From Bdellovibrionales bacterium (lineage in GTDB: Bacteria > Bdellovibrionota > Bdellovibrionia > Bdellovibrionales > UBA1609), in assembly GCA_965247685.1 (NCBI GenBank), contig OZ252021.1, positions 420,001 to 452,000 of the forward strand: DNA of 32,000 bases, given 5' to 3'. Shown piece by piece: positions 377-16,410 of the stretch. Below the pieces are notes generated by a model. The model saw nothing but the letters and a program-made list of their open reading frames with translations. It was not told the origin of the DNA and made no database searches. Each line of letters starts with the position of its first letter. Within the stretch, counting starts at the first letter, position 1. The position numbers and the translations under genes are program-made.

Positions 377-1465
377 GTGAAGTTCCTTATTTTATTTATT
401 ATTTCAGTCCTATGTGTTGCAGATAGTTTTGCCATAGGAGTTGGCGCTTTAAGTGCTACTGGAGCTGGCATTTCTTTGGTGGCTTCTATGACCAAATCTG
501 AAAAGGTTCAAAAAGCGGGGGCTGTGATCAATATAGGTATTGGAGGTAAATTAATAGCTTCCAATTGTCCTACCAATCTGCTGCTTTGTGGGTTGGGTGC
601 AGCACATATTTATGCAGGTATGCAGCTCTTCTCCAATGCCGATAAAACCCGTAGAAATCGAGACAATAATTATGGCAGAGAAGGATCACACCATCACCAC
701 CCTCCAATCGCTGGGCACTATCATCCGCATCCTCCAGGCCCGAGGCCTCCTCATCCCATCCCTGATTGCGCGGAAGGTGGGGATAATACTGATTGTGTGA
801 CTGAAGATCCCACTCCCACTCCTCCTGATCCCATTCATGACGACCCCCTTAATTGCGTGGCAGATGCGGACAACGTTGATTGTGATCCTAATCCCTCTAG
901 GATAGTTGAGAATTGCATAAATCATCCTCAACAGCCTGGTTGTAGGGTAATTATCGATGCGAATAGGATATGTAGGGAGAGTGCAGTCTGTGACTTGACA
1001 AATCTTCCGCTTATCACACTCCCTAATGGAGACATAGTAGATGTTACAACAATAAAAAACCCATTATCTGAACAAGAAATGAAAGATTTGTATGACAAAG
1101 CTTTATCTTCAGCTCAATCTTCTTATCCAAATTTATTCTCTGATTCATCTATGGCAAGAAAACGCAAAAAAGGTTCCAGTACTAGCGACGTTGCTAAAGA
1201 TAAGGGACTCCTTGATGGAGATGGACAAGGTGGAGCGTCGTCTAGAGGAGGTCCTATTGTTATCCGAAGAAATAGAAGCCCAGACTCTTTAGATGATGAT
1301 GGATTAGGAAACGATTGGTATAAAAAACTTCAAGCTCAATTAAATAATAAGAAGAAGAAAAAAACACTCAAATTCAAATCTCAAAAACTCGGAAATGACA
1401 AAATCGGTACATCTTATGACAATATCTTTAATATGATGTCTGAAGGTTATCAAGCGCGCTACTAA
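377..1465 (+). CDS. Hypothetical secreted protein rich in His/Pro, with C-x8-C loops and a Lys-rich tail
   Basis: A 362-codon ORF is long for AT-rich DNA. The start is GTG. The signal-peptide-like N-terminus is MKFLILFIISVLCVADSFA. Gly/Ala-rich hydrophobic segments follow, then SHHHHPPIAGHYHPHPPGPRPPHP. Next come three C-x8-C pairs (CAEGGDNTDC, CVADADNVDC, CINHPQQPGC) and one C-x5-C (CRESAVC). The tail contains KKKKK. I recognise no family. Confidence 0.7.
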   Translation: MKFLILFIISVLCVADSFAIGVGALSATGAGISLVASMTKSEKVQKAGAVINIGIGGKLIASNCPTNLLLCGLGAAHIYAGMQLFSNADKTRRNRDNNYGREGSHHHHPPIAGHYHPHPPGPRPPHPIPDCAEGGDNTDCVTEDPTPTPPDPIHDDPLNCVADADNVDCDPNPSRIVENCINHPQQPGCRVIIDANRICRESAVCDLTNLPLITLPNGDIVDVTTIKNPLSEQEMKDLYDKALSSAQSSYPNLFSDSSMARKRKKGSSTSDVAKDKGLLDGDGQGGASSRGGPIVIRRNRSPDSLDDDGLGNDWYKKLQAQLNNKKKKKTLKFKSQKLGNDKIGTSYDNIFNMMSEGYQARY

Positions 1466-1472
1466 GCAAAAA

Positions 1473-2513
1473 CTATTTATCATTCCATTTGAATAAAATC
1501 ACTGTGAGCGTCAGTACAATAACACTAAACAATAGCATTGCCCAAATATGATCACGCACTTGATATAAAGAGGCTCCATCCAGCATAATCTTTCTTGTAG
1601 ATGCAATAAGGTGTGTTAAAGGGAGAGCTTTTGAAAAATTTTGCAGCCACACAGGACTTCCTTCTAAAGAAAACCACATTTCTGAAAAAATAAAAAAAGG
1701 CCAACTAAAAACATTTAAAAGCTGATCAGCAAACTCCTTACTCTTTGTCCGAGAAGCCACTAAAAGCCCAATGGAAGATAAAGAGATAGCTCCTAGAGTA
1801 TAACAAACAATAAGACTGAGATAAGAACCTTGAGTTTCAAAAGAAATCAATAAAGAACCTGTAATAAAAGTGACAGAAGTAGTGACTAGCACAATCACCA
1901 AACGAGAAAAGAGCTGCCCCAAAAGAAAAGAATAACTTTTAAGTGGTGTGGCATGAAGTCTTTTCAAGTAGCCTTCACATCTATAGACTACAATCATATA
2001 TCCCACTCCCCATAAACATCCAAACATAATGGTGAGAGCTAGAATTCCTGGAAAAACCCAATCCATATAACTTGCAGGCTGAGTCATAAAGGAATTTTTT
2101 CTAAGCTTTTTATTGAAAGACTTTTTTAGTAATTGTTCGGTAATGTAACCATTCTTATTAGAATCATTGATCCAATATTGCATAGGAGAAGATAGCTCAA
2201 TCAATAAATCTAACTTATGATCTCGAACTTTTTTGATCCCAGCTTGTTTTTCCTGTGGCAAAAACTGAATATGCTGAATTTGAAAAAATTCTTCAGATTG
2301 TAAAGCCGATGATTCTAATGAACCTACTATTCCAACTTTAAATAAAGAGCTTTGATCATTGTTAAAGGTTATATAAAAAGCAGTAATAATAAATATAGGT
2401 AAAACCCAATGCCAATAAAAACTACTTTTATCTCGATAAAACTCTCTAAAGCGAGCAAGCCATACGGCGTAAAAAGAAGTAAAAAATATTTTTACTGATT
2501 TAATTTTAATCAT
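1473..2513 (-). CDS. ABC-2 type transporter permease
   Basis: The 346-aa protein has one N-terminal TM helix, a roughly 110-aa soluble loop, then a cluster of about five hydrophobic helices. This is the typical ABC-2 topology. Its start overlaps the stop of the upstream ATPase gene by 8 nt, which suggests translational coupling. Confidence 0.85.
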   Translation of the reverse strand: MIKIKSVKIFFTSFYAVWLARFREFYRDKSSFYWHWVLPIFIITAFYITFNNDQSSLFKVGIVGSLESSALQSEEFFQIQHIQFLPQEKQAGIKKVRDHKLDLLIELSSPMQYWINDSNKNGYITEQLLKKSFNKKLRKNSFMTQPASYMDWVFPGILALTIMFGCLWGVGYMIVVYRCEGYLKRLHATPLKSYSFLLGQLFSRLVIVLVTTSVTFITGSLLISFETQGSYLSLIVCYTLGAISLSSIGLLVASRTKSKEFADQLLNVFSWPFFIFSEMWFSLEGSPVWLQNFSKALPLTHLIASTRKIMLDGASLYQVRDHIWAMLLFSVIVLTLTVILFKWNDK

Positions 2514-3387
2514 TCAAACTTTTTCCTGCTAGCTTGATAAATAAATCCTCTAAAGTGTAAGGATGTATCTCCATGTCTGTAATGGAAGTATTCGAATTAA
2601 TCAGTTTTTTTAGAAAAAGCTCTACTTGATTCACATTAAATTCTAAATGTGAAGAAGTTTCCCGAACTAGTAAAGATGAAAACTCACTAAGATCTTTTTT
2701 ATAAGACAGAGGAAATAAAGCACGAACACCTGTAAAATGTTTACTGAGTAAATCTTGAGGAGTCCCTTCTTCAATAATCTTCCCTTGATCCATAATAATT
2801 AATTCATCACAAAGTGTTTGAGCTTCATCCATAAAGTGTGTCGTCAAAATAATAGTTTTTCCTTGCTTTTTAATAATATTGATTAAATTCCAAAATCTTT
2901 TTCTTGCTGCTGGATCTAAATCCGTTGTGGGCTCATCTAAAAATAAAAGTTCTGGATCATTAATTAAAGACAATCCAAGTAGAAGCCGCTTCCTTTGACC
3001 TCCAGATAATTGTTTATGATCTTTTTCTAAAATATCCTCTAACTCACAAGTCTTAATAAGATCTTCTAAAGGTTGATGATGTTTATAAAACGCTGCAAAG
3101 GTTTTCAAAGCTTCATACACTCTCATATGTTCTTGTAAAGCTGTTTTTTGAAACTGAATACCAATTTTTTCTTTATATTCTGAAGTTCTGGGTTTTTGAT
3201 TAAATAAAATAGTTCCATGAGTCGGTTCTTTAACGCCCTCAAGTATTTCAATGACAGTCGATTTACCCGCTCCATTAGGTCCGAGCATTCCAAAGCAAAC
3301 ACCTTTTTTAACTTTAAAAGAGACATCATTTACAGCTTTGAAAGAGCCATAATATTTATGAAGATTAATAACATCCAAACAAATCAT
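2506..3387 (-). CDS. ABC transporter ATP-binding protein (ABC-2/DrrA-NatA-like exporter ATPase)
   Basis: Walker A is GPNGAGKST. The ABC signature is LSGGQRKR. Walker B is LLFLDEPTTDLD. A H-loop TTH is present. The start is ATG. Confidence 0.93.
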   Translation of the reverse strand: MICLDVINLHKYYGSFKAVNDVSFKVKKGVCFGMLGPNGAGKSTVIEILEGVKEPTHGTILFNQKPRTSEYKEKIGIQFQKTALQEHMRVYEALKTFAAFYKHHQPLEDLIKTCELEDILEKDHKQLSGGQRKRLLLGLSLINDPELLFLDEPTTDLDPAARKRFWNLINIIKKQGKTIILTTHFMDEAQTLCDELIIMDQGKIIEEGTPQDLLSKHFTGVRALFPLSYKKDLSEFSSLLVRETSSHLEFNVNQVELFLKKLINSNTSITDMEIHPYTLEDLFIKLAGKSLND

Positions 3388-3405
3388 AACGTAAAAAGGA
3401 AATAA

Positions 3406-4302
3406 CTAGGAACAACTTCGATTCGTACACACCTTATCACAAATGTTAGAAGTGAGCTCATCACTGTTAATACCTAAACCATAATAAGAGTCTTCTTCTT
3501 GAATAAAGTCAAAGATTTTATCCCTTTCAATAACTCCTGAAATAAATCTAAAATTAGGTGTATGAATGTATTTTGAATCTTCTTTATGACAATACACTCG
3601 CAACACACAAGTTTCATTAAAGTCTGATAAATCAAATAAAGCATATTCATAATCAAAATCACATAATTCTTCTTCAATCATAATATGAGCCATATAAACG
3701 GCATAATCATTGTTATTCTCATTGCTAATTGTATAGAAGTTACTTCCATGCACTAAGTTCCAATGAAGAGCATTTTCCACTGTTAAAGGACTGACGGAGC
3801 TTACCAAGTTGAGAAAAATATTTTTATATTCATCAGACCCTAGTGAGAACAAAATATGTGCAATATCTCTTTCTTCTGCAACCCATGACAAAAATCTTCG
3901 AGCTTCTGGAATAGTATATTCATAAATATGTTTGTTTAAAGTACGTGTTCCTACGCTTAAAAATAATTGAAATTCACGAGCATTAACATGTTTGAGATCC
4001 AAACGACTTGCATTTTCAAAAACAGGGGCGATGTAATGAATATCTTCTACATCAGACACAGACAGATCCAAGCATGTAGAAATTTCTTCAGGATGATTTT
4101 GATAAATTTCAGAGCAAGCCACTCGACACTTGCTAAAGGAGTGGCATAATCTATCGTCTCGAGAATATCTGTTTGAAGATCTCTTTTCATCTTCAATATC
4201 TTGATCAAGCTCCACCTTTTGCCTATCGTTGATATTTGTACAAGCTCCACAAAAGGATAAGACTAAAAGCAGTAACAATCCATTTTTTTTCATCGACTCC
4301 AC
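3406..4302 (-). CDS. Cys-patterned lipoprotein, paralogue 1 of a 4-member tandem family (function unknown)
   Basis: The signal peptide has a lipobox (LLLLLVLSFCGAC). Shared family motifs are CHSFSKCRVACSEIY, RFLSWVAEE and CVLRVYC, with a C-terminal CDKVCTNRSC. The start is either the GTG at 4302 or the ATG at 4293 (MKKNG...), which has GGAG just upstream. Confidence 0.75.
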   Translation of the reverse strand: MESMKKNGLLLLLVLSFCGACTNINDRQKVELDQDIEDEKRSSNRYSRDDRLCHSFSKCRVACSEIYQNHPEEISTCLDLSVSDVEDIHYIAPVFENASRLDLKHVNAREFQLFLSVGTRTLNKHIYEYTIPEARRFLSWVAEERDIAHILFSLGSDEYKNIFLNLVSSVSPLTVENALHWNLVHGSNFYTISNENNNDYAVYMAHIMIEEELCDFDYEYALFDLSDFNETCVLRVYCHKEDSKYIHTPNFRFISGVIERDKIFDFIQEEDSYYGLGINSDELTSNICDKVCTNRSCS

Positions 4303-4352
4303 CTTCTTTGGAATTGTTCCATAGCTAGCATTTTAGGTCAAAATAAAAAAAA

Positions 4353-5336
4353 TTAAAAATCGCAGTCATTTTGTCTGTTGCAGAACCGATTACAAAGTTC
4401 AGTGTCAAAAATTTCACTTCTTAAATCACTATCTATAACATCACCATCTCTAATGCTTCTTTGTACATAAGACCACACATCTGGCCCTTGTACATAGCAA
4501 TAGTCCTCATCCTCAGCTTCATAACCATCTAAATAGTAACAACTAGAATCGTTCTCATAAGTAGAACTTTGTCCAGAAATAGGTCGCCTTGTACAAAGAG
4601 CGAGCAATTTACAATTTTTAGAAGAATTAGAGCATTCATCTTCCTCTAGTAATTTAAAAGCCAACTCTAAAGCTTTTTCATTATCATTTTCTTGAACAAA
4701 ATATAAAAAAGTTTCTCTTTGACGAGCTAAACCTATAGATAAAGCACGAGCAATGGTTTGGGGTTCTGAATGCCGGTCTGCAAGTTCTAAAAGAATTTCT
4801 TTCAGTGCTTCATCATTATTCCTATAGCTCATTGCTTGTGTTGCACTCGATGAGGCAGCCACCCAATTGAGAAAAGCGGATGTTCCTCGAACTCCCCAAT
4901 CATCCTTGAATTTTCTACGAAAAACATCTATTTCTTCGTCAAAAATGACTCCCACCGCTGAAGGATCAATGCCATCTGCATTGGGGCTGCGAATATTTTC
5001 TAATGCCTCAAAAGTTTCATGGAGAGCCTCTACCATATCAATAGGAAATTTTTCACAAGAATCTCTATTAGAGGAAGAAAAAATATCTCGACATAAATCA
5101 CGGCAATCACTATCTTCCTCACAGTCTTCTCCATCAAAATCACTTCTGCTTAAAGCACGAAATCGACTGGAAGAGGAATTTACTTCTCTGAGTTCACCGT
5201 TACCAGATCGTCTAGATGAATCATCAGGTTCAACAATAAAATCATTGCTACTGCGATCACAACTAAAGAGAAGTAAGAAAAAAGTAAAAAACACTGCAAT
5301 AAAAACAACCCTCAGTGTATTTCTTCGAACAAACAT
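4353..5336 (-). CDS. Cys-patterned lipoprotein, paralogue 2 (function unknown)
   Basis: The lipobox is FFLLLFSCDRS. Family motifs are CEEDSDCRDLCRDIF, AFLNWVAAS and CKLLALC, with a C-terminal CNRFCNRQNDC. Confidence 0.75.
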   Translation of the reverse strand: MFVRRNTLRVVFIAVFFTFFLLLFSCDRSSNDFIVEPDDSSRRSGNGELREVNSSSSRFRALSRSDFDGEDCEEDSDCRDLCRDIFSSSNRDSCEKFPIDMVEALHETFEALENIRSPNADGIDPSAVGVIFDEEIDVFRRKFKDDWGVRGTSAFLNWVAASSSATQAMSYRNNDEALKEILLELADRHSEPQTIARALSIGLARQRETFLYFVQENDNEKALELAFKLLEEDECSNSSKNCKLLALCTRRPISGQSSTYENDSSCYYLDGYEAEDEDYCYVQGPDVWSYVQRSIRDGDVIDSDLRSEIFDTELCNRFCNRQNDCDF

Positions 5337-5475
5337 ACCTTATTTTAATATCGATATATTCCTAGAATCAAGAATAAGTAAAGACAGCCACTCAGAACAA
5401 GCCTACAAAACTCCTATATCACTATGCACAACATGATCTCTCACACCTAACTGTTCGATATGAGATGTTATTTTA

Positions 5476-6465
5476 TTATATCAAACCTTGATTGTCTGCA
5501 GCTCTACAAACATCATTGATATCCTCATAGTCATCAACTTCTAATCCATCTCTGTGAGTAGTAGCATGTGTGCTACTAGCAGATCCTGCTCTAATATAAT
5601 CTTCAAGGTCAACTATCTCTTCTAAGATATACTCGAAGACATCTCTAAAGATATAATCACCTTTATCTTCATCGCAAAGGGCTTCTGCCAGCAAACAAGC
5701 TGCATCTCTAAAATCTTCATCTACATGAGTGTATTTACTAGTTTGCTGTCCAGCTGGAGCATTTTCTCGACAATCATCCAGTGCTTCTTCAAGAAGAAAA
5801 GAAGCTCCACTATCTTCGTCCGCATTAAAAGATAAAACAACAAAGTTATCTTCTTTATCTCTATCCAAGGTAGTTGTGATAAAATCAATAAAACTATTAG
5901 ACCCAAATTCATCTAAAAGATCGTTGAAAAACCTCTTCAGATCACCGTCATCAAATGACGAATCGATAGCGTCATAAATGTCACCTTCAGTTGCGATCCA
6001 ATAAAGAACTCTTTTTGCTTGAGACCTGCTATAATCTTCAATGAGCTCACCCCAAAGTCCACCATCAATGTCTAAAGCATTTTCTATATCTTCGGGTTGT
6101 ACCTCTGGTAGATCATCTTCATCTGGTTCAGCTAAATATCCATCATTGTCTTCAAATGCAAGAAACATCCCTTCCACCTCATTAACACTCAGTTCTAAGC
6201 AGTCCTCCCTTTTAGTTCTACTGCCAAAAAGGTCTTCACACTGTTCTTCACAATCATCATCTCTCTCACAAGAACCACCGCCAACTCGAGTACGAGTACG
6301 ATTTCTGCCGGTAGAATCATCAGGAGCAGGTGCTGGTAGAATAATAGGTCCCCCTCCGTTTCTCCCTCCGTTTACGGTTTGATTCCCTGGTCTACAAGAA
6401 GAAAAGGTAAAGGCCAACACGCCTACTATGAAAGCCGAACAAATATAAACCAATTTTCTTCTCAT
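5476..6465 (-). CDS. Acidic Cys-patterned lipoprotein, paralogue 3 (function unknown)
   Basis: The lipobox is LAFTFSSCRPG. Family motifs are CERDDDCEEQCEDLF, RVLYWIATEGDIYDAI and CLLAEALC. The protein is very rich in Asp and Glu. I place the start at the ATG at 6465 (MRRKLVY...) because GGAGG lies 5 nt upstream. The track's TTG at 6477 overlaps that Shine-Dalgarno sequence. Confidence 0.8.
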   Translation of the reverse strand: MRRKLVYICSAFIVGVLAFTFSSCRPGNQTVNGGRNGGGPIILPAPAPDDSTGRNRTRTRVGGGSCERDDDCEEQCEDLFGSRTKREDCLELSVNEVEGMFLAFEDNDGYLAEPDEDDLPEVQPEDIENALDIDGGLWGELIEDYSRSQAKRVLYWIATEGDIYDAIDSSFDDGDLKRFFNDLLDEFGSNSFIDFITTTLDRDKEDNFVVLSFNADEDSGASFLLEEALDDCRENAPAGQQTSKYTHVDEDFRDAACLLAEALCDEDKGDYIFRDVFEYILEEIVDLEDYIRAGSASSTHATTHRDGLEVDDYEDINDVCRAADNQGLI

Positions 6466-6664
6466 AACTACCTCCAAAAACAGCCAAAGACATTATCGAT
6501 ATCTTAATTCCATATAAGGTTCTCACAATCTTCGTGTAAAACCTAGCATCATACCGATCAAAACTAGACTTTTGTTCTCCTGTTTCATAAACATTTAAAA
6601 TCATTAGCTTTTAAACTATTTTTCAAAAACCCCGACTATTTAAAGACAAAAACCATTCAGTCTA

Positions 6665-7570
6665 TCACTCAGGAAGCCCTTGATCCTCTGCAGCCTCACA
6701 AACTGTACTAATATCATCAGAGTCCTCCACATCGAGTCCATCTGCATACCCATCGGATCTACCGTCTTCCACAAAATCCTTCAGGTCTGAAGTATTCTTT
6801 ATAATAAACTCAAAGGCAGCTTCAAAGATATAATCCCTGCCATCTTTTTTACAAAAAACCTGTCCAAGTAAACAAGCTGCTTCTGTAAAATCACCCGCAC
6901 TACTATAAGGGCCTTTCGGACAATCCTCTTCTGCGTTCTCAAGGACAAATTGAGCTGCTCTTAACCCTTTATTTGCAACAGCCAATACAATGAAATTATC
7001 TTCAGCATCTTCATCTAAATTTCTTATAATCAAATCGGTAAAAGTGGTGCCAGAGAGTTCTTCAAAGAGACTCTTTAAATCGTTGTCTTCAAGAGAAGTC
7101 TCGATAGCACCATAAATATCATTTTCGGTTGCAATCCAATAAAGAACCCTTTTAGACTGGGAGGAATTGTACGTACGAGCAAGTTTAGACCAAATATTTT
7201 TATCAATAGACAAAGCATTTTTTATATCTGCACATGAAATGTCTTTTAAATCATCTTCACTAGGTCCCTCTAACAATCCTCTTTTCTCATCAAATGCAGA
7301 AAATATACCTTGAACTTCATCCACAGAAAAATCCTTGCAGGCATTTGTTTTTGTATTACCACTAAAGAGATCCTCGCACTGCTCTTCACAATTACTATTT
7401 CCTACACAAGAACCACCGCCAGATTTAGAACATGTAGATGAATTTCCATTATCTGGTGGAGGAACTATATTGCCAGTTCCGGCTCCTGATTTATCTTCAC
7501 AAGAAATAAACATAAAAACCAGCATACTTGTGACAAGGACTGAATAAATATAACTTCTTCTTAAACTCAC
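6665..7570 (-). CDS. Acidic Cys-patterned lipoprotein, paralogue 4 (function unknown)
   Basis: The GTG start is preceded by AAGGAGAAGG. The lipobox is LVFMFISCEDK. Family motifs are CVGNSNCEEQCEDLF, RVLYWIATENDIYGAI and CLLGQVFC. It aligns with paralogue 3 along its whole length. Confidence 0.8.
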   Translation of the reverse strand: MSLRRSYIYSVLVTSMLVFMFISCEDKSGAGTGNIVPPPDNGNSSTCSKSGGGSCVGNSNCEEQCEDLFSGNTKTNACKDFSVDEVQGIFSAFDEKRGLLEGPSEDDLKDISCADIKNALSIDKNIWSKLARTYNSSQSKRVLYWIATENDIYGAIETSLEDNDLKSLFEELSGTTFTDLIIRNLDEDAEDNFIVLAVANKGLRAAQFVLENAEEDCPKGPYSSAGDFTEAACLLGQVFCKKDGRDYIFEAAFEFIIKNTSDLKDFVEDGRSDGYADGLDVEDSDDISTVCEAAEDQGLPE

Positions 7571-7808
7571 GACCTTCTCCTTTTATACTTGTGAAACAAG
7601 TCTTAATAAAACCACTATTTGAAACAAAATAAAAGATAAATATACTTCTGAATAATTCTTTTAATCTAAAAATTTTTAAAACCAGACTAAAATCCGTAAT
7701 TTGTGTTCAAAAATAAAACACTTTTTTTCAATAATAAAACGTTTCAACAAGCTTATGTATTCCTTAAGGAATTTTGTATTTAAAAAAGGAGATACTATTG
7801 CAATTGAA

Positions 7809-9941
7809 TCATTTTTTGATATTAAACTCCAAACAAAGATCATTGCTTGTAACATGGACTATAGATCCAGAATTTATTTTTTCACTAATAATTTGACGAG
7901 AGAGGGGATTGAGTAGCTCATTTTGAATGACCCTTTTTAAGGGTCTGGCACCAAACTGAGGGTCATACCCTTTTTGAATGAGAAATGAGGTCACCTTTGA
8001 ATCAAAATTAATTTTTATTTGCTTTGCTAAAAGGCGAGATTTCACTTGTTCCAACTGGATATTCACAATTTGGGACAAATCTTCTTTTTCTAATGCGTTA
8101 AAGAAAATAAACTCATCCACTCGATTCAAAAACTCAGGACGAAACTTTTGTCGAATAATATCCATCACTTTTTTTTGAGAAGGTGAAGAGTCTGAAAGCT
8201 CTTCTGCTCCCAAATTAGATGTCATTATTAATATGCAATTTTTAAAATTCACTGTTCTACCGTGACCATCCGTCAGTCTTCCATCATCAAAAACCTGCAA
8301 CAAAATATTAAAAACATTAGGGTGAGCTTTTTCAATTTCATCAAACAAAATCACACTGTAAGGGTTGTTCCTCGCATATTCGGTTAACTGTCCTCCCTCT
8401 TCATATCCTACGTAGCCTGGAGGAGCGCCTATCATTCTTTCTGCTTGGTGTTTTTCACTATATTCACTCATATCGAGGCGAATCATCTTTTTTTCATTAT
8501 TGAATAAAAAATGAGCTAAACTTTTTGCAGTCTCCGTTTTTCCCACTCCTGTCGAACCTAAAAACATAAAGACACCAATAGGTTTATCAGGATCCGAAAC
8601 TCCAGAACGAGATCTACGAATCGCATCCGATATTTTAAGTAAAGCGTGATCCTGTCCAACCACTCTTTTTTTTAACTCAAGCTCCATGTTTAAAAGTTTT
8701 TGTGCCTGCTCCTCTGCAATACGGCTTACAGGAATGCCAGTCCACCGGGCAACGACCTCCGCCACCTCTTGAGCCCCCACTTCTTCTTTTAGAAAGACTT
8801 TTCCATTACTTTTTTGAATCTTTTTTTCTAGTTCCTCTAGTTTTTGTTTTTGCTTAGGCAAATCTGCATATTTAAGTTTAGCCGCCTTATCTAAGTGACC
8901 ATCCCTTTGAGAGCGAGCAATTTCTATTTTCAGTCTCTCAATTTCTTTTTTTGTATTTTTTAATTCCATAATTCGAATTTTTTCCTTTTCCCACAGCTCC
9001 GACAGCTCTTTGTTTCTTTTTTGCAGCTCTTGTACTTGTTTTTGGACTTCTTTATATCTCCTTTTAGAAACTGTATCGTTTTCTTTATAAAGAGCTTTTT
9101 CTTCGACCTGCAATTGTAAAATTTTTCTTCGAAGCTCATCTAACTCATCCGGAACACTATTGACCTCTAGACTCAGCTGGCTTGCAGCTTCATCAATAAG
9201 GTCTATTGCTTTATCTGGAAGGAAACGATCGGAAATATAACGATAAGAAAGATGAGCCGCTTGTACTAATGCAGAATCTTTAATACGTACTCCGTGATGC
9301 ACCTCGTACTTGTCCTTGAGCCCTCTAAGAATGGTCACTGTATCTTCTACGGAAGGCTCTTCGACAGCAATTACTTGGAAACGTCTTTCTAAAGCCTTAT
9401 CTGTTTCTATAAATTTTCGATATTCGTCTCTTGTGGTCGCTCCAATAGCTCTTAAATCCCCACGAGCTAAAGAAGGTTTTAAAATTTGACCTGCATCCAT
9501 AGCTCCATCGATTTTACCCGCCCCAATAAGAGTGTGAAGTTCATCAATAAATAAAACAATTTGCCCCTGACTTTGCTCAATAGCTCGCACTAAGGTTTTC
9601 AACCTTTCCTCAAATTGCCCCCTATACATAGAACCCGCCACCATAGAGGCTAAATCCAAAGATAAAAGAGTTTTACCTATCAAAATATCAGGAACATCTT
9701 TGTTGATGATACGAACAGCTAGACCTTCAGCTATTGCTGTTTTACCCACTCCTGGTTCTCCCACCAAAACAGGATTATTTTTTTTACGCCGGCAAATCAC
9801 TTGAATAACTCGTCGAATCTCCTTATCCCGCCCGATGACTGGATCAAGGCGGCCCTTTTCTGCCAACAGGGTTAAGTTTTTGGTGTACTTTTCCAGCACT
9901 TGTTGCTCGTTTTGAGGTATTTCATTCACTCTTTCACTCAT
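7809..9941 (-). CDS. clpB: ClpB-type AAA+ disaggregase, encoded without the N-terminal domain
   Basis: There are two AAA+ modules (GEPGVGKTAIAEGLA with FIDELH, and GSTGVGKTETAKSLA with ILFDEIEKAH). A long coiled-coil middle domain is present (ELDELRRKILQLQVEEKALYKE...). The motifs ARWTGIPVS and FGARPLKR are present. There is no ClpP-docking IGF-type loop. The protein begins at the position equivalent to about residue 145-160 of E. coli ClpB (LEKYTKNLTLLAEKGRLDPVIGRD). Confidence 0.95.
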   Translation of the reverse strand: MSERVNEIPQNEQQVLEKYTKNLTLLAEKGRLDPVIGRDKEIRRVIQVICRRKKNNPVLVGEPGVGKTAIAEGLAVRIINKDVPDILIGKTLLSLDLASMVAGSMYRGQFEERLKTLVRAIEQSQGQIVLFIDELHTLIGAGKIDGAMDAGQILKPSLARGDLRAIGATTRDEYRKFIETDKALERRFQVIAVEEPSVEDTVTILRGLKDKYEVHHGVRIKDSALVQAAHLSYRYISDRFLPDKAIDLIDEAASQLSLEVNSVPDELDELRRKILQLQVEEKALYKENDTVSKRRYKEVQKQVQELQKRNKELSELWEKEKIRIMELKNTKKEIERLKIEIARSQRDGHLDKAAKLKYADLPKQKQKLEELEKKIQKSNGKVFLKEEVGAQEVAEVVARWTGIPVSRIAEEQAQKLLNMELELKKRVVGQDHALLKISDAIRRSRSGVSDPDKPIGVFMFLGSTGVGKTETAKSLAHFLFNNEKKMIRLDMSEYSEKHQAERMIGAPPGYVGYEEGGQLTEYARNNPYSVILFDEIEKAHPNVFNILLQVFDDGRLTDGHGRTVNFKNCILIMTSNLGAEELSDSSPSQKKVMDIIRQKFRPEFLNRVDEFIFFNALEKEDLSQIVNIQLEQVKSRLLAKQIKINFDSKVTSFLIQKGYDPQFGARPLKRVIQNELLNPLSRQIISEKINSGSIVHVTSNDLCLEFNIKK

Positions 9942-10143
9942 AATATTCCTTTTTTTAAAGCTCTCTTTTTAAGCTCAAGTTTTTCTTAAGTTTGTCCTTT
10001 TTAAAGACTGAAATTTCGGCTTTTACAGCAAAAGTCCTAAATAAAAACTGGTAATTATTTTCTATTTGTCAATTATTCTTAAAATTTCGGGCTTATTTGA
10101 CCTTAAAGAGGGCAATAATAATTAGAAACCTTATTCTTACATC

Positions 10144-10173
10144 TTGACAGTTGTGTATAGCTATCCAGACAAT
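10144..10173 (+). promoter_or_regulatory. Candidate sigma70-type promoter for the Lys-rich protein gene
   Basis: TTGACA lies at 10144-10149 and GACAAT at 10168-10173, with an 18-nt spacer. GGAG at 10184-10187 sits 7 nt before the ATG at 10195. This is a pattern match only, and such hexamers are common in AT-rich DNA. Confidence 0.3.
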
Positions 10174-10194
10174 TAATTGAAATAGGAGATCAGT

Positions 10195-10875
10195 ATGAAA
10201 AAGAAAAAACCCTCCAAAAAAATCAAAAAGAAAATTGCTGCTAAGAAAATTGCTGCCAAAAGAAGTGTGAAAAAAAAGACAGCTAAAAAAACTAAAAAGA
10301 AAGTTGCAAAAAAGGTTATTAAGAAAAAGAAATCTGCTTCTAAGAAAATCACTTCCAAGAAGAAAGGTGCAAAAAAATCTACTAAGAAAAAAAAGCCTGC
10401 TTCGAAGAAAGTTAAAAAGAAAAAAGCTTCCAAAAAAATCAAAAAGAAAATTGCTGCTAAAAGAAGTGTGAAAAAAAAGACAGCTAAAAAAACTAAAAAG
10501 AAAGTTGTAAAAAAGATTATTAAGAAAAAGAAATCTGCTTCTAAGAAAAAAGCTTCCCCTCCAGCAGGCATCCTAGCAGAAAAACCTCTATCTGAACCCT
10601 TTGAAACCATAGCGGATATCCTCATAGTTGAGGAGAATTTAAACCTAGAAAATGATCCTGCAGTGGTGGATGATGCTGAGAATGAAAATTTCTTCACAGA
10701 CCCCTTTGCAGATTCAGAAAGTTTAAGTGATAATGAGGGAATAGAGACGGATTCTTATGAAGATGACCCTTTTGATTCATTAGAATCCGAAGACGACGAC
10801 GAAGATTCTCTTCTTGACTCCAATGACCCTGATGACGACAAACAGACGCAAGATAATGATTCGGATTTCTTTTAA
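10195..10875 (+). CDS. Bipartite histone H1-like protein with a Lys/Ala-rich basic N-terminal half and an Asp/Glu-rich C-terminal half
   Basis: By my count, 66 of the first 119 residues are Lys, and residues 1-123 contain no Asp or Glu. The remaining 103 residues are strongly acidic and contain only 2 Lys. A good Shine-Dalgarno sequence and an ATG are present. The composition resembles bacterial H1-like proteins (Chlamydia Hc1/Hc2, AlgP, BpH). Confidence 0.7.
   Translation: MKKKKPSKKIKKKIAAKKIAAKRSVKKKTAKKTKKKVAKKVIKKKKSASKKITSKKKGAKKSTKKKKPASKKVKKKKASKKIKKKIAAKRSVKKKTAKKTKKKVVKKIIKKKKSASKKKASPPAGILAEKPLSEPFETIADILIVEENLNLENDPAVVDDAENENFFTDPFADSESLSDNEGIETDSYEDDPFDSLESEDDDEDSLLDSNDPDDDKQTQDNDSDFF
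10213..10550 (+). repeat. Two near-identical direct repeats of about 120-137 nt inside the Lys-rich coding region
   Basis: Copy A is 10213-10349 and copy B is 10429-10550. They differ by a 15-nt insertion in copy A (an extra aagaaaattgctgcc, KKIAA) and two substitutions (gttgcaaaaaaggtt vs gttgtaaaaaagatt). Both encode SKKIKKKIAAKRSVKKKTAKKTKKKV.KK.IKKKKSASKK. Confidence 0.9.
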
Positions 10876-12313
10876 AAAGAGAATTAACCCTCATTTTATT
10901 ATTATTTTTTTAAGCTTCTTTGGAGTCTTTGGGAGCCCTGCCTCGCCCTTGAATGATATGAGTTATTTAAAAAGAAACTACAGCCAAGTCCGTAGTTTTG
11001 AAAATTATTTATTTAAACCTCCTTTAGAAAATCCTGAAGAACTCATTAATCCCTATCAAATAAAAACTCACTCAGCTTTAATACTTAAAGATGGAAAAAT
11101 TATTTATGAGAAATACGCTGAAGGTTATGATAAAGATCGTCCACATAAAATGTGGTCTATTAGCAAGGCTATCACGAGTCTTTTAATCGGAATAGCTGTA
11201 AAAGAAAACAGATTATCTCTCAAGGATAATGTCTGTCGCTATTTCAAAAAATACACCCTTCAATTTAACTGCAAAAATATGACCATTGAGGATCTAATGG
11301 GTTGGTCGAGCGGGCTTCGCTGGAAAGAGCGAGATTTTCCATCTTCTACGATCAATATGCTTTATACCTCCATCGGCTATAAAGATTCCACTAGTTTTAT
11401 TTTGAAGCATTCTTTAGCGGGAAAACCTGGAGAACTTTGGCATTACTCCAGCGCAGACACTAATCTTTTAACATACATTTTATCTCAAGTTTATAAATCA
11501 GATGAATATGCTAAACTTCCTTGGATAAAACTCTTTAATGAGCTGGATGTTCAAAATGCTACTTGGGAAAAAGATCATAAAGGAATTTTTCAAGGATGCT
11601 GTTCCCTTTACCTCACCTCTAGAGATTTGGCACGGGTGGGGGAGTTTATGTTAGAAAAGGGGAATTGGCTTGGTAAAGATTTTTTACCTAAAGACTGGAT
11701 TAAAAATTATGTTCAAACTACTTCACCTTCTTTTTTAAAAGAACCTATTTTTATTCGTGGTTTGTTAGTTCCTAGTTTTCAATGGTGGATTAATAAACCT
11801 TCTTTTCATAAGAAGGTCTTTAAACCTAGAGCTATTTCTGCTCCTGATGATCTTTTTGCAGCCGTGGGATACGCAGGCCAATATTTTTTTATCATTCCCT
11901 CTATGAACACAGTGATTATTCGAACAGGCCCAGTACAAGATATCTTTATAGATATCAATGCTATTGTTGGGCTTGCTTTGGGAATTATTACAGGGAAACA
12001 ATATGTTTCTCCCATACGAACCTTTCAAGTCCCTTACACTTTAGGAGAAGAATTCCCTCTTCCTCTCCCTCAAATAAATAACAATTTTAATTCTGCTCAA
12101 ATGATTAATAATTATGTTTCTAAAGAACTTTGTTCGTGTCTTTTTGTGGAAAAAGGAACCAAGCATGAATGCCTGGATCAACTGGAGGATTTTATCAAGA
12201 ATACTCAAGTGATCTCCTCGTCTTACAAAAATAAAACGGTTAAAGTCTCTCACCTAGGGTTTCTTAAGAGCACTTCGCATTACTCTAAATTTTACGGTTG
12301 CAGAATCCAGTGA
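10856..12313 (+). CDS. Secreted serine hydrolase of the beta-lactamase/PBP-like (PF00144-type) family
   Basis: An S-x-x-K motif is present (MWSISKAITSLLIG). A Tyr motif (WHYSSADTNLL) and a GYAGQYFFIIP region follow. The likely start is the ATG at 10856 (MIRISFKKRINPHFIIIFLSFFGVFGSPASP, a signal peptide), which overlaps the upstream gene by 20 nt. The track's start at 10814 adds a non-hydrophobic extension. Confidence 0.85.
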   Translation: MIRISFKKRINPHFIIIFLSFFGVFGSPASPLNDMSYLKRNYSQVRSFENYLFKPPLENPEELINPYQIKTHSALILKDGKIIYEKYAEGYDKDRPHKMWSISKAITSLLIGIAVKENRLSLKDNVCRYFKKYTLQFNCKNMTIEDLMGWSSGLRWKERDFPSSTINMLYTSIGYKDSTSFILKHSLAGKPGELWHYSSADTNLLTYILSQVYKSDEYAKLPWIKLFNELDVQNATWEKDHKGIFQGCCSLYLTSRDLARVGEFMLEKGNWLGKDFLPKDWIKNYVQTTSPSFLKEPIFIRGLLVPSFQWWINKPSFHKKVFKPRAISAPDDLFAAVGYAGQYFFIIPSMNTVIIRTGPVQDIFIDINAIVGLALGIITGKQYVSPIRTFQVPYTLGEEFPLPLPQINNNFNSAQMINNYVSKELCSCLFVEKGTKHECLDQLEDFIKNTQVISSSYKNKTVKVSHLGFLKSTSHYSKFYGCRIQ

Positions 12314-12361
12314 ACGTTCCTAAATATCAAAATTTCCTTCATGAACACTGAAGTAGGAAAA

Positions 12362-12790
12362 TTATAATTCTCCACGAATAATTTCAATAAGGGCATTGAG
12401 TGCATCTGTCGATGTAAAAATGCCAATATCTCCATCTGCATTTTGCACAATGGCCGAGCCAATTTTTGTCTCAGACATATAAAAGGCAACTTCTCCAATA
12501 TCCGTATTCTCATCCACAATATAGGGATCAACCTTCATAATATCTTGAGCTAAAACATCTTCTTTTTGTTGAAAGCGGTAAGAATTCAAAACATCTCTTT
12601 GGGACACAATACCCACAACATTTCGGGAATCATCTAGTACAAGAATATGCCGAATAGACTCCTTTTGCATCCACTCCTCTAAGTCCTTAGCTGGAGTTTT
12701 TAAAGTTGCAAAAATCGAACAAGGAGTGGTAAATTCCTCAACTTTTATATTAATCTTTTTTTTTCTGTTTTCCATATACTGTTTTTTCAA
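12362..12790 (-). CDS. Stand-alone CBS-pair domain protein
   Basis: The 142-aa protein has two CBS-like units (IRHILVLDDSRNVVGIVSQRDVL and IGSAIVQNADGDIGIFTSTDAL). Confidence 0.85.
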   Translation of the reverse strand: MKKQYMENRKKKINIKVEEFTTPCSIFATLKTPAKDLEEWMQKESIRHILVLDDSRNVVGIVSQRDVLNSYRFQQKEDVLAQDIMKVDPYIVDENTDIGEVAFYMSETKIGSAIVQNADGDIGIFTSTDALNALIEIIRGEL

Positions 12791-12838
12791 TTGACTTCCT
12801 TAAAAGAAAATAACATAAAGTGGAGCGGATAATCAATT

Positions 12839-13609
12839 ATGTTTTATATTTTAACGCTCGCCATAGTAGCCCCTCTTGTTTTACTTCTTTTACTTGTCGG
12901 GCTGTCCAAGATTTTGTTTATTAAAAAAGCTTTATCAAGTGGGGCAACGACCTCTATCAGTGCAGGTCTTCTAACAAGTCTTATTTTCTTCAAGTTTTTA
13001 CCTCATAGTCTAGAGTCTACGACGCCTGTTATTTTTTCCACAGGTTTTTTATTTTCATTATTTCTTATGATTGCCATCGAAGTTTACATCATCCCTTATA
13101 TCCCTTTTTCTAAAATATTTCCAAAAATAGACTCAAAGATTTCCAGCTGCCAGCATTATCATAATTATCATCACCATATTTCGCACTCTCAATCTTTTTC
13201 AACAATCGGATGCCTTTTAAGTTGTACCTTTTTTGATGGTATTCGTTTTGGCTCTTCCTTATTTGTAGATTTACAAACAAGCATCTTTATTAGCTTGGCT
13301 TTACTCGCTCATCTTCTGCCAGAGGGGCTTTCCGTTCTTTCTTTAGCTCAAAGTTCTCAGTACTCAAAAAGAGCTTATTTATTTTTAAAACTCTTATTAT
13401 GCAGCTCTTTAGGTCTAGGCATAGCTTTAAACGGGATCTTTCACTTTGAGAAAGTTGAAAGTTGGATTTTAATTTTTTCTACAGCATCTCTTTTTTACGT
13501 AGTTTTTATTCATCTTGCCCCTTTTGTTCTTAAGAAAGAAAATCATAAATTATTTTTTATCACTTTACTTATTTCTTCTTCCCTTATGATTCTCTTGAAT
13601 TTTCACTAA
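12839..13609 (+). CDS. ZIP-family divalent metal (Zn/Fe) transporter, ZupT-like
   Basis: The protein is polytopic. It has a His-rich loop (CQHYHNYHHHISHSQ) and the conserved ZIP motif ALLAHLLPEGLSV. Confidence 0.8.
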   Translation: MFYILTLAIVAPLVLLLLLVGLSKILFIKKALSSGATTSISAGLLTSLIFFKFLPHSLESTTPVIFSTGFLFSLFLMIAIEVYIIPYIPFSKIFPKIDSKISSCQHYHNYHHHISHSQSFSTIGCLLSCTFFDGIRFGSSLFVDLQTSIFISLALLAHLLPEGLSVLSLAQSSQYSKRAYLFLKLLLCSSLGLGIALNGIFHFEKVESWILIFSTASLFYVVFIHLAPFVLKKENHKLFFITLLISSSLMILLNFH

Positions 13610-13686
13610 ACAAAAACTTTAAAACAATAGTTTCTTGTGTTACGATCAGACGATAATGGAAAACTATACAGAACGGAGATCTTATT

Positions 13687-14922
13687 TTGAATATTGAAGC
13701 TTTATTCTTAATCGTATTTCCATTGATTTTTGTTATTTTAGGTTTTCTTTTTTGGAGAAACTCACAAAAACTTAATGAAGCTCAACGAAAAAATACACAA
13801 GATGCCCAGCAAATAGCAACTTTACAAATAAGTCATCAAGCCGGTGAAGAAAAGCTTCAAATCGTTCAACAGCAAATAAAAGCTCAAGAGACAGTTGAAA
13901 AAAACATGATTTCTCAGTTTGATAGTCTTTCACAAAAAATTCTCAATGAAAAAACCTCTCAATTTAAAAAAGACTCCAAAGAGCAATTGGAAAACACTCT
14001 TCAACCTCTCAAAGAACAAATTAAATTATTTCAAGAAAAAGCAGAAAAATACTACGACACTGGATCAAAGGAAATGCTGACTTTAAAAAATGAAATAGAA
14101 CACTTGATGAATGTTGGTCAAAAAATGAATGAAGAAACCCACAACCTCACCCAAGCCTTAAAAGGAAATGTCCAAACTCAAGGAGCATGGGGAGAATCCA
14201 TACTCAGTCAAGTTTTAGAAGCTTCAGGATTAAGAGAAAATGAAGAGTATATTCTACAGGGAACAGACCTTCAGCTTCAATCCATAAGCGGCTCCCACTT
14301 AAAGCCAGATGTCGTGGTGAAGCTTCCTCAAAATAGACATCTAGTCATTGATGCTAAAGTTTCTCTAACTCATTATGAGCGATATATTGCAAGCTCAAAT
14401 GCCGAAGAAAAAAAGGAGTTTTTAAAAAACTTTACCCGATCCATTCGAAACCATATATCAAATCTAAGCTCTAAAGAGTATCAAAATGCCTTAGGTTTAA
14501 ATTCTTTAGACTTCGTCTTTTTATTTTTCCCTTTAGAAAGTGCTTTTTCTGTAGCTCTACAAACAGATCGAAGTATTATCGAATCTTCTTGGAAAGAATC
14601 TGTGGTCATTGTAAGCCCTACAACTTTGCTCGCCACACTGCGAACTGTCGCATTTATGTGGCAAAGAGAAAGAGAAAATAAAAATGTTTTAGAAATTGCT
14701 AAAAAATCAGGGGATTTATATGACAAATTTGTTGGTTTCTTAGACGATTTAACACAAGTAGGGACTCATCTGAAACATTCTTCAAATAGTTATGAGGATG
14801 CATATAAAAAATTAAGTACAGGTAAAGGCAATATTGTCTCACGATTGGAACATATTAAGAAACTCGGGGCTCGAGCTAAGAAACAAATCAATAAAGATTT
14901 CACTGCTGACCTTGAATCGTAA
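13687..14922 (+). CDS. rmuC: DNA recombination protein RmuC
   Basis: There is an N-terminal TM helix followed by a long coiled-coil. The RmuC core motifs are GNVQTQGAWGESILSQVLEASGL and KPDVVVKLPQNRHLVIDAKVSL, followed by IVSPTTLLATLRTV. The start is TTG, preceded by ACGGAGA. Confidence 0.9.
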   Translation: MNIEALFLIVFPLIFVILGFLFWRNSQKLNEAQRKNTQDAQQIATLQISHQAGEEKLQIVQQQIKAQETVEKNMISQFDSLSQKILNEKTSQFKKDSKEQLENTLQPLKEQIKLFQEKAEKYYDTGSKEMLTLKNEIEHLMNVGQKMNEETHNLTQALKGNVQTQGAWGESILSQVLEASGLRENEEYILQGTDLQLQSISGSHLKPDVVVKLPQNRHLVIDAKVSLTHYERYIASSNAEEKKEFLKNFTRSIRNHISNLSSKEYQNALGLNSLDFVFLFFPLESAFSVALQTDRSIIESSWKESVVIVSPTTLLATLRTVAFMWQRERENKNVLEIAKKSGDLYDKFVGFLDDLTQVGTHLKHSSNSYEDAYKKLSTGKGNIVSRLEHIKKLGARAKKQINKDFTADLES

Positions 14923-15073: not shown

Positions 15074-16336
15074 GTGAAAATCAAATCTGGAATATTATTT
15101 AACTTCTATTTTCTCTTTGTCACGCTTGCTCTGACATCTTGTAGTGGTAGAAATGAACCTTCGTTAAATAACATTCCAGATGATAGAGCTCAACAATTAA
15201 GAGAAAGACCACAGACCACATCACGAAATCGAGGCTGCAACTCTAATCAAAATGGAGAAGTAAGTATTAGTAGAGCAAGAACTATTAGTAGCGAAAATGC
15301 AGGTGAATATAGGTTATCTGGACGTTGCGATAGCAACAGTAGAGAAGTCACCATCACTATTGAGGGAAAAAGTTTAGATATTAACTGTTCCGGAGGACGT
15401 TGGGCAGCTAATTTAGATTTAACAAGTATTGTACAAGATCAAGATACAGTCGAAATTTCTGCTGAATCAGAATCAGATACAGCCTGTACTTCTGTGAATA
15501 ATATTTTTAATTGTCCAGATGAATATGTTCCTGTTCCTCGTTTAGATAATTTTACGAATAGAGATTTTTGCGTCATGAAGTATGAAGCTAAAAGAGAATA
15601 TTCCAATCGCAGGAGTTCATCCAGTCGCAGGAGTGTATCCAGTCGGGATGATAATAATAATAATTATGATGAAAAAGCTATTTCCAAATCTAGTGACGAT
15701 CCATGGATTGAAATCTCTCATACACAAGCCCAAGTAAAATGTCAAAATAATGGTTTAGGCTATCGTTTAATTAGAAATAGCGAGTGGCAAACCATTGCTC
15801 GTCATGTTGAAGATGAAGATCGAAATTGGAGTTCTGGAAAAGCTTCATCCTCTACTAGTAATTTTTTAAATTATGGTGTTCTATTCCGAAAAAGTGGCTC
15901 TAACTCTCGATCTTCTTTTGGAAGAGGTCGCTCTAATTATGCCAATCGTGATTGGAACCCTGAAAAAAGAGACCATTATTTACCAAACGGAGAAGAAATC
16001 TGGGATATGTCTGGCGGAGTCTGGGAGTATGTCGATGACTCTACTTCAGATTTAGGCGTGAAAAAAGAGAAAGATGAACCTATTTTTGATTCTGATCAAA
16101 ACAAAAAGCTTTTTGGACCTGCTGGTTACTACAATGCACCTTCTTATAATAGAGATACAAGGAATAATACTTTAGGTTTAGGGTATGCTTATTTATCCAA
16201 TATCAAGGATGGAATTATTCGTGGTGGAGGATTCACTGAAGATGATTTAGGAATTTTTTCCGTTGATGCAAGTGTTCGTTATGATGATGCCCTTACTTTG
16301 TCTCCCACTGGTTTTAGATGTGTTTATGAACCTTGA
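15074..16336 (+). CDS. Lipoprotein with a C-terminal FGE/SUMF1-type (formylglycine-generating-enzyme-like) domain
   Basis: The start is GTG. The lipobox is LALTSCSG. FGE-sulfatase-like motifs are FCVMKYEAK, RLIRNSEWQTIARH, GGVWEYVDD, RGGGF and the terminal GFRCVYEP. Confidence 0.8.
   Translation: MKIKSGILFNFYFLFVTLALTSCSGRNEPSLNNIPDDRAQQLRERPQTTSRNRGCNSNQNGEVSISRARTISSENAGEYRLSGRCDSNSREVTITIEGKSLDINCSGGRWAANLDLTSIVQDQDTVEISAESESDTACTSVNNIFNCPDEYVPVPRLDNFTNRDFCVMKYEAKREYSNRRSSSSRRSVSSRDDNNNNYDEKAISKSSDDPWIEISHTQAQVKCQNNGLGYRLIRNSEWQTIARHVEDEDRNWSSGKASSSTSNFLNYGVLFRKSGSNSRSSFGRGRSNYANRDWNPEKRDHYLPNGEEIWDMSGGVWEYVDDSTSDLGVKKEKDEPIFDSDQNKKLFGPAGYYNAPSYNRDTRNNTLGLGYAYLSNIKDGIIRGGGFTEDDLGIFSVDASVRYDDALTLSPTGFRCVYEP
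15607..15642 (+). repeat. In-frame 18-bp tandem duplication inside the FGE-domain lipoprotein gene
   Basis: tcgcaggagttcatccag is followed directly by tcgcaggagtgtatccag (16/18 identical). They encode RRSSSS and RRSVSS within a Ser/Arg/Asn low-complexity insert. Confidence 0.8.
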
Positions 16337-16371
16337 TATGTTCAATCATCTCTTTACCGATAGTGTATTTA

Positions 16372-16410
16372 TTCAACCAAAATCTTCAACCAAAATCTTC
16401 AACCAAAATT
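16372..16410. repeat. 13-bp tandem repeat, three copies (ttcaaccaaaatc)
   Basis: Copies lie at 16372-16384 and 16385-16397, with a third at 16398-16410 whose last base is t. The repeat sits between convergent genes, and the last copy overlaps the thioesterase stop codon at 16409-16411. Confidence 0.85.

Follow-up and report, generated by a model that had tools for sequence, protein, structure and literature searches.

A lineage-restricted family of predicted acidic eight-cysteine lipoproteins and its possible link to an ABC-2 exporter in Bdellovibrionales

Several described systems pair a tethered lipoprotein with a machine of the bacterial envelope. In the LanI + LanFEG arrangement (NisI/NisFEG, SpaI/SpaFEG), a membrane-tethered lipoprotein is encoded together with the ATPase and the permease of an ATP-binding cassette (ABC) transporter of the ABC-2 type, and NosL is likewise an accessory lipoprotein that is encoded with an ABC-2 transporter, NosDFY, and works at the periplasmic face. 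In LpoA/LpoB and RcsF, a lipobox is followed by a long disordered linker, which lets a folded domain reach its partner in the envelope, either a penicillin-binding protein (PBP) or the Rcs system; LpoA consists largely of helices, and non-consecutive disulfides lock RcsF. Paralogous lipoproteins that stand in tandem in small genomes, are confined to one lineage and are unnamed elsewhere are found in Borrelia, Mycoplasma and Treponema. We analyzed a stretch of 32,000 nucleotides (hereafter the window; GC content ~35%) from a Bdellovibrionales bacterium (assembly GCA_965247685.1, contig OZ252021.1, positions 420,001 to 452,000), in which four consecutive genes, here called A1, A2, B and C, are followed by genes for an ABC-2 ATPase and permease. 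It is very probable that their products belong to a real, unnamed family of predicted tethered acidic lipoproteins with eight conserved cysteines, and we tentatively propose that in this clade they act jointly in the service of the exporter.

The initial annotation had recorded four consecutive lipoprotein-type genes on the minus strand, and all four open reading frames (ORFs; ~300-330 codons) were present and intact; together with the transporter genes they make up six co-oriented minus-strand genes (1473-7570; Table 1). Comparison by BLASTP, with A2 and C taken at the longer of their possible lengths (5476-6477 and 3406-4302), gave 42% identity between A1 and A2 (E 2e-83), 25% between C and A1 (E 9e-15), 23% between C and B (E 2e-10) and 24% between B and A2 (E 9e-10), and a family hidden Markov model (HMM) matched all four copies over their full length with E values of 1e-61 to 1e-76 (4e-70 for A1). 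Similarity so far above chance marks the four genes as true paralogues. In the four-way alignment, the lipobox cysteine, C-x5-C-x3-C, a fourth cysteine 12-13 residues further on, L-x-W-x-A and three later cysteines were invariant. The signature C-x5-C-x3-C-x3-[FY]-x7-9-C and the [FV]L-x-W-[VI]-A motif were thus seen in all four copies as first described, as were the C-terminal C-x3-C-x4-5-C tails of B and C (C-x3-C-x5-C in B). By contrast, the later C-x6-C that had been ascribed to all four copies was present in A1 and A2 only, B and C having C-x5-C (CVLRVYC, CKLLALC).

The cysteine spacing, whose conservation in orthologues the initial annotation had left to be checked, holds in the orthologues and across a large family. 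In a 90-sequence alignment, C70, C76, C80 and C93 were invariant, and the lipobox cysteine, L123, W160 and four later cysteines were each at least 90% conserved. When 168 sequences were aligned to the family HMM, all eight domain cysteines occurred together with the lipobox cysteine in 129 of them; an asparagine (78%), a tyrosine (76%) and a histidine (65%) were also conserved, the consensus around the asparagine and the histidine, NExALEWVH, giving an N-x7-H helix motif. Among the window copies only C has both residues of this motif (NNDYAVYMAH), and B keeps the asparagine alone. Presence and absence of cysteines over the 168 sequences allowed no disulfide pairs to be derived, the cysteines being too invariant. 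Because an export signal is combined with invariant cysteines in even number, we infer that the products are exported, lipidated and located in the envelope, with four putative disulfides per domain.

To score the leaders we used a PS51257-style rule, run as our own implementation and not as SignalP or LipoP, which asks for an N-terminal K/R, an uncharged hydrophobic stretch and [LIVMFWSTAG](2)-[LIVMFYSTAGCQ]-[AGS]-C with the cysteine at positions 15-35. The lipobox leader that had been read in all four copies was borne out for A1 (MFISC, C24), A2 (TFSSC, C24 counted from the ATG) and B (LLFSC, C26); C (SFCGAC) missed the rule, solely through the cysteine at −3, a position at which several C orthologues have allowed residues (FFGAC, ISGAC). 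The rule was passed by 114 of 177 family proteins. The leaders are followed by tethers of 30 amino acids (aa) in A1, 41 aa in A2 and 45 aa in B; family-wide, the stretch from the lipobox cysteine to the first domain cysteine has a median of 44 residues (10th-90th percentile, 32-59), 79% of which are disorder-promoting. The richness in Asp and Glu reported for the two upstream copies was real (30% of the domain in A2 and 21.5% in A1), but it does not set them apart, as the isoelectric point (pI) of all four domains falls between 4.05, in A2, and 4.69. The predicted layout of the products is accordingly a Sec signal peptide with lipobox, a lipid-attachment cysteine, a disordered tether of ~30-45 residues and an acidic all-alpha domain of ~240 residues with eight near-invariant cysteines.

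Acidity is a property of the whole family, whose domains have a median pI of 4.14, a median Asp + Glu content of 25% and, in 90% of members, a pI below 5. Such a surface could serve in high-capacity binding or buffering of Ca2+/Mg2+ in the envelope rather than in contacts with protein partners; consistent with this, the main subfamily and the A type share a conserved acidic loop, LEDPDxDDLxDID, and one member gave a weak match to EF-hand_8 (E 0.0013). However, the loop is lost in B and C of the cassette, even though C is the most constrained copy, Pfam recognised neither an EF-hand nor any other calcium motif in the four copies, and acidity alone would leave the eight cysteines, the fixed A/B/C set and the fusions described below unexplained. 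We consider cation binding a very improbable primary role.

The initial annotation could not name a family for these proteins, and neither could our searches of sequence, profile and structure databases. Pfam and NCBIfam returned only sub-threshold noise for the four proteins (best E 0.03-0.18, all below cutoff), PADLOC and PHROGs gave no match, no Pfam or NCBIfam family was matched by more than one of 90 distant relatives, and profiles of 4 and of 90 sequences found nothing among PDB sequences better than E 0.075. AlphaFold2 modelled A2 (5476-6477; 16-sequence alignment) as an all-alpha protein with a predicted local distance difference test score (pLDDT) of 80.7 and a predicted template modelling score (pTM) of 0.73, the tether (residues 28-63) falling below pLDDT 50; the AlphaFold model of C (3406-4302; 65-sequence alignment) has ~15 helices, pLDDT 88.4 and pTM 0.84. 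Foldseek searches of the PDB with both models gave nothing below E 0.79 and no TM-score above 0.24, generic helical repeat proteins leading the lists; BFVD yielded no match, and over PDB and BFVD together there was none with E <0.3. To judge from the models, the fold of the eight-cysteine domain looks novel. Literature searches on the organism group, the motif and cysteine-rich lipoprotein paralogues returned no description of the family.

Known folds were considered individually and rejected. For alpha-solenoid repeats (ARM/HEAT/TPR/ankyrin), no Pfam repeat family matched, and the ARM, PUF, TPR and ankyrin entries found by Foldseek had E >0.7 and TM-scores of 0.15-0.25. A cysteine-stabilised defensin-like fold was represented only by the AtDEF-like family PF25052 (E 0.16-0.18; 12.5 bits against a cutoff of 25). 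A ferredoxin-like metal cluster on C-x5-C-x3-C, to which a weak ferredoxin match (E 0.35) might point, was set aside in view of the export signals and of a spacing that does not correspond to a known Fe-S motif. As to the Lipocone/Min-Wnt superfamily, no Wnt-like entry stood among the Foldseek matches listed, all with E >0.7; as outlined in PMC12419801, Lipocone domains have five helices, are often membrane-embedded and occur in other contexts than the present family.

When 1.84 billion representatives of 50% identity clusters were searched exhaustively with a profile, 734 family representatives were found at E 1e-3, 565 at 1e-10 and 66 at 1e-30; none of the relatives examined carries a protein name, and none comes from UniRef. 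A word-indexed search gave 11-24 proteins per query and 15 close relatives, many of them on contigs of 0.6-1.3 Mb; P0004, P0005, P0007 and P0008 are C orthologues with 70-82% identity. When genome contigs were searched with the alignment as a profile, three relatives turned up whose records bear the title 'MAG: Bdellovibrionales bacterium', a 1.40 Mb chromosome among them; the same search with a single protein as query found nothing, indicating that the alignment was needed, and a scan of JGI metagenomes with the core motif DCE[DE]IC[DKS]D found no relative. Long contigs with members measured 1.0-2.3 Mb, the GC content of the loci that we fetched was 31-43%, and MutS and other flanking genes of related loci were 59-77% identical to their counterparts in the window, which places the window in the same broad group. 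On the searches made, the family is lineage-restricted and has no relatives in curated databases; its members have so far come to light only in little-known, uncultured bacteria. It is a sizeable one, with at least 565 representatives at E <=1e-10 and no name, curated model or structural neighbour detected, and with boundaries, eight conserved cysteines, the W and N-x7-H motifs and the tether in hand, a new domain family can be defined. Unnamed lipoprotein families are not rare; the family is new within a known kind, that of tethered envelope lipoproteins and lineage-specific lipoprotein gene arrays.

These matches also bear on the suspicion that the genes are spurious or decaying low-complexity acidic ORFs with chance cysteine patterns. 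Their composition is biased, and the region contains antisense ORFs (Table 1) whose Ser-richness arises because they mirror a GAA/GAT-rich coding strand, the same feature that accounts for a strongly negative GC skew at 3-10 kb. Against this explanation stand the full-length HMM matches, the 734 related representatives, ratios of nonsynonymous to synonymous substitution (dN/dS) well under 1, the confident AlphaFold models and the Shine-Dalgarno sequences that precede the starts, and we regard it as effectively refuted. AAGGAG lies ahead of the A1 start (GTG 7570) and, with the starts re-read from the DNA, GGAGG ahead of that of A2 (ATG 6465) and AAGGTGGAG ahead of ATG 4293 in C. Because of this last Shine-Dalgarno sequence, the true start of C is probably ATG 4293 rather than GTG 4302.

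Table 1. Genes and other features of the window, and family genes at loci outside its clade.
Locus	Feature	Coordinates	Strand	Product	dN/dS against L011	Remarks
Window	A1	6665-7570	minus	301 aa	0.36	extra, fast-evolving A-type paralogue; predicted eight-cysteine all-alpha domain
Window	A2	5476-6465	minus	329 aa from ATG 6465; 333 aa from alternative TTG 6477	0.27	acidic A-type paralogue
Window	B	4353-5336	minus	327 aa	0.23	B-type paralogue
Window	C	3406-4293	minus	295 aa from ATG 4293; 298 aa from GTG 4302 (ORF list start)	0.09
Window	ABC transporter ATPase, DrrA/NodI-like	2506-3387	minus		0.14	co-oriented with C, tight spacing
Window	ABC-2 family permease	1473-2513	minus	346 aa	0.10	start overlaps ATPase stop
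Window	ClpB, N-terminally short	7809-9941	minus	710 aa	0.07	upstream of A1
Window	secreted protein	377-1465	plus	362 aa		convergent on ABC-2 permease
Window	antisense ORF	4867-5436	plus			long, Ser-rich, inside acidic genes; not a gene
Window	antisense ORF	5729-5977	plus			long, Ser-rich, inside acidic genes; not a gene
Window	antisense ORF	6041-6382	plus			long, Ser-rich, inside acidic genes; not a gene
Window	Lys-rich protein	10195-10875	plus	226 aa
Window	antisense ORF	10173-10697	minus			Phe/Leu-rich; opposite 10195-10875
Window	protein with lipobox-like leader	15074-16336	plus			LALTSC; FGE-sulfatase domain
Window	protein with lipobox-like leader	19938-21488	plus			FYMSGC
Window	protein with lipobox-like leader	21485-23290	minus			HLVSC
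Window	protein with lipobox-like leader	23402-25708	minus			LLSHC
L006, L009, L013	tandem pair of family genes
L009	LspA (Peptidase_A8)	5006-5527				~1.2 kb upstream of the tandem pair
L015	six family genes	8808-14440
L014	eight family genes	3735-13875
L005	fused two-domain protein	8001-9755		549-615 aa (range over the fusions)
L007/L008	fused two-domain protein	8001-9848		549-615 aa (range over the fusions)
L010	fused two-domain protein	8001-9650		549-615 aa (range over the fusions)

To see how the four genes are arranged elsewhere, we compared seven genomes: the window and L001, L002, L003, L004, L011 and L012. In the six related loci the order was A-type gene, B-type gene, C-type gene, ABC ATPase and ABC-2 permease, with 38-81% amino-acid identity to the window; the B orthologue lay directly before the C-type gene in 6/6 cassettes, and the A2 orthologue came first in L001-L004 and L012 and second in L011. 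In a neighbour-joining tree the A, B and C proteins formed three clean orthogroups, and A1 of the window paired with the extra copy (copy 1) of L011. The proposal that the duplications are old thus stands, each type being monophyletic over the seven genomes, whereas the accompanying notion of a local expansion applies to the extra A copy only, the A/B/C triplet being an old stable set. The ATPase gene adjoined the C-type gene in 7/7 genomes, with gaps of 18, 12, 12 and 2 nucleotides and a 4-nucleotide overlap in L012; the 18 nucleotides are those between the C stop and the ATPase start in the window. In support of a cassette, the order was kept although the upstream flanks differ: ClpX/Lon and then two unannotated ORFs in L001, MutS, a LuxR-type regulator and a thioesterase in L002-L004, and ClpB in the window, L011 and L012. 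A sequence scan of 1300-8000 found no terminator-like site. In the related clade, the A/B/C genes apparently form one operon with the ABC-2 exporter, as far as gene order and spacing can tell.

The ATPase matched PF00005 (E 1.5e-29), its best NCBIfam model being drrA (TIGR01188; 219.6 bits against a cutoff of 312.45), and the permease matched PF12698 (E 5e-20) and PF01061 (E 5.5e-17), with 66.3 bits for drrB (TIGR01247) against a cutoff of 223.05. By these scores the two are generic DrrA/DrrB-like ABC-2 proteins outside the DrrAB subfamily cutoffs. The permease has a loop of ~97 residues between its first and second transmembrane segments, predicted to be periplasmic, whose pI in six orthologues is neutral to basic (6.5-9.7).

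We then estimated dN/dS between the window and L011 by the Nei-Gojobori method; dS was ~1.0-1.3 and thus saturated, so the ratios (Table 1) are rough. They indicate purifying selection on all four copies; it acts on C, the most conserved copy, no less strongly than on the pump, and the A type evolves fastest. A fast-evolving and duplicated A type, low-complexity and variable tethers, tandem arrays with as many as eight copies (contigs of 1.2-1.6 Mb) and a lineage-restricted family without relatives in curated databases would also suit surface-exposed adhesins or variable antigens through which an epibiont or parasite with a small genome interacts with host or prey; the arrays would then widen the range of binding specificities, and the ABC-2 pair would be an incidental neighbour. 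However, contingency or antigen families do not keep their members in the way seen here, where the A, B and C orthologues have been retained in unchanged order over deep divergence, as the saturated dS attests; moreover, dN/dS is only 0.09 for C, fused two-domain forms suit a complex better than a set of alternative variants, and no repeats or switching elements were seen. An adhesin or antigen function is therefore unlikely in our view.

Convergent on the permease gene lies a gene for a secreted protein (377-1465) that matched nothing in Pfam or NCBIfam. Of the six related loci, at least five (L001, L003, L004, L011 and L012) have a positional homologue next to the cassette. In the product, a signal peptide and a Gly-rich hydrophobic block (SEKAQKxGGxIxIGxGxKL..NC) precede a middle part rich in Cys, Pro and His; the block and the C-terminal end (KLGNDxIGTSHDNIFDMMSxGYQ) are conserved, the middle part hypervariable. 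This gene may be a sixth member of the locus. By analogy with lantibiotic immunity, it could encode the agent in a self-protection system, in which a cationic membrane-active product would be sequestered by the acidic tethered lipoproteins on the outer face of the membrane and then expelled through the ABC-2 pump. The combination of lipoprotein, ABC-2 ATPase and permease, the domain pI of ~4, the recurrence of the convergent secreted gene and a match of the ATPase to the lantibiotic-protection subfamily TIGR03740 (2.4e-43) are compatible with this, and predatory Bdellovibrio is known to use periplasmic all-alpha (ankyrin) self-protection proteins. However, the TIGR03740 match reached only 148 bits against a cutoff of 310 and was also below the drrA score; Pfam, NCBIfam and PADLOC revealed no similarity of the lipoproteins to LanI, SpaI or any immunity family; the window contains no bacteriocin biosynthesis genes, and the secreted protein no known toxin domain. 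In addition, the stable three-type set differs from variable immunity-gene islands, and the pump is absent at most family loci, which makes self-protection distinctly unlikely.

Outside this clade, at least two family domains were present at every locus examined, either as tandem arrays of 2-8 genes or as fusions (Table 1). In the fusion proteins the second domain lacks the N-terminal C-x5-C-x3-C part, its HMM match starting from position ~135-206. When paralogous domains are fused into a single chain, this is classically taken as a hint that the separate paralogues interact. Because small genomes keep few paralogues, the presence of two to eight copies in an array suggests that the family has an important task in the envelope. 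Linkage to the ABC-2 pair, which the initial annotation had proposed to survey, is kept in the window's clade and is not family-wide. DivIVA and a T2SSF/FHA gene cluster stand upstream of the family genes in L013-L015, whose contigs measure 1.19-1.56 Mb and have a GC content of 32-36%; the LspA gene near the tandem pair of L009 may be a coincidence.

We propose that A, B and C are putative disulfide-locked envelope lipoproteins that act as a hetero-oligomer and, in this clade, serve the exporter, a reading to which we assign a probability of roughly 40%. The lipidated domains would be periplasmic or surface-exposed, each locked by four disulfides, and the paralogues would cooperate rather than act redundantly, as suggested by the stable, non-redundant types and by the fusions. 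In the window's clade the complex, and above all the C type, would be the extracytoplasmic partner of the exporter, as suggested by the tight spacing and by the matching constraint on C. The tether would allow the helical domain to reach the periplasmic loop of the permease, where the domain may take up, hold or pass on an exported substrate, or regulate the pump.

Several observations weigh against this proposal. The gaps between A1, A2 and B are 139-187 nucleotides, so that these genes could conceivably be transcribed apart, and a promoter scan of 1300-8000 carries no information, its 26 sites being what chance would give (23.6 expected by shuffling). The seven genomes are related and partly collinear; the conserved adjacency therefore does not amount to seven independent observations. 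At eight further loci there is no adjacent ABC-2 pair, one of them adjoining an unrelated OpuAC-type ABC importer, and exporter coupling consequently cannot be the general role of the family. Finally, no conserved catalytic or ligand-binding signature was recognised in the proteins.

A stronger form of the proposal, in which A, B and C share a new disulfide-locked all-alpha fold and form a tripartite periplasm-spanning adaptor by which the ABC-2 exporter is coupled with the outer membrane or with the cell surface, seems improbable. If it were true, reduced-genome Bdellovibrio-like bacteria would possess an undescribed machine of their own for trans-envelope export or self-protection, and the larger arrays of sister lineages would represent versions of this one envelope scaffold. 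The fixed A/B/C set in a likely operon with an ABC-2 exporter provides a concrete, testable entry point; should both the fold and the pump coupling be true, the proteins would be a new accessory type for ABC-2 exporters and might mark the lifestyle of the lineage. The probability that remains falls to functions beyond those considered here.

Other genes of the window also showed unusual features. In ClpB the profile alignment begins at position 147, the N-terminal domain being missing; because the ClpB proteins of L011 and L012 are likewise short (712 and 699 aa), the short form is a lineage trait rather than a truncation artefact. The product of 10195-10875 has an N-terminal half of Lys-rich repeats (KKKxAAKK, histone-H1/AlgP-like) and an acidic C-terminal half, matched no family and has a partial homologue in L011 (55% identity over 110 aa); the ORF on the opposite strand is a mirror artefact. 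According to the family HMM, none of the four other proteins with lipobox-like leaders (15074-25708) belongs to the eight-cysteine family.

In comparison with known systems, the eight-cysteine family belongs, as judged from sequence and structure matches, to none of LanI/LanFEG, LpoA/LpoB, RcsF and NosL/NosDFY. With the classical DrrAB/NodIJ exporters only the ABC genes of the window can be compared: they share the ABC_tran and ABC2_membrane(_3) domains and have drrA and drrB as best NCBIfam models, but score below the subfamily cutoffs, and classical DrrAB has no lipoprotein partners. NosL + NosDFY differ in that no NosD, NosL or NosY match and no nos genes were found here, and in fold class. 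Unlike the tandem families of Borrelia, Mycoplasma and Treponema, the types described here are ancient, orthologous, order-fixed and, in some lineages, fused, which argues for a complex rather than for variation. LpoA/LpoB and RcsF share with the family the lipobox, the long linker (here a tether with a median of 44 residues) and the folded domain; they show no homology to it, their partner is a PBP or the Rcs system and not, as proposed here, an ABC-2 pump, and eight cysteines, extreme acidity and a multi-paralogue set are peculiar to the family. The resemblance to LanI + LanFEG extends to the sub-threshold match of the ATPase to the lantibiotic-protection subfamily; by contrast, the window encodes three types of all-alpha paralogues where LanI systems have one lipoprotein, LanI proteins are beta-rich, no LanI family match was obtained, the host is diderm, no lantibiotic genes lie nearby, and the linkage is clade-specific. 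By analogy, the working mode of these proteins would be most like that of a tethered accessory lipoprotein of an envelope machine, or like the LanI + LanFEG arrangement.

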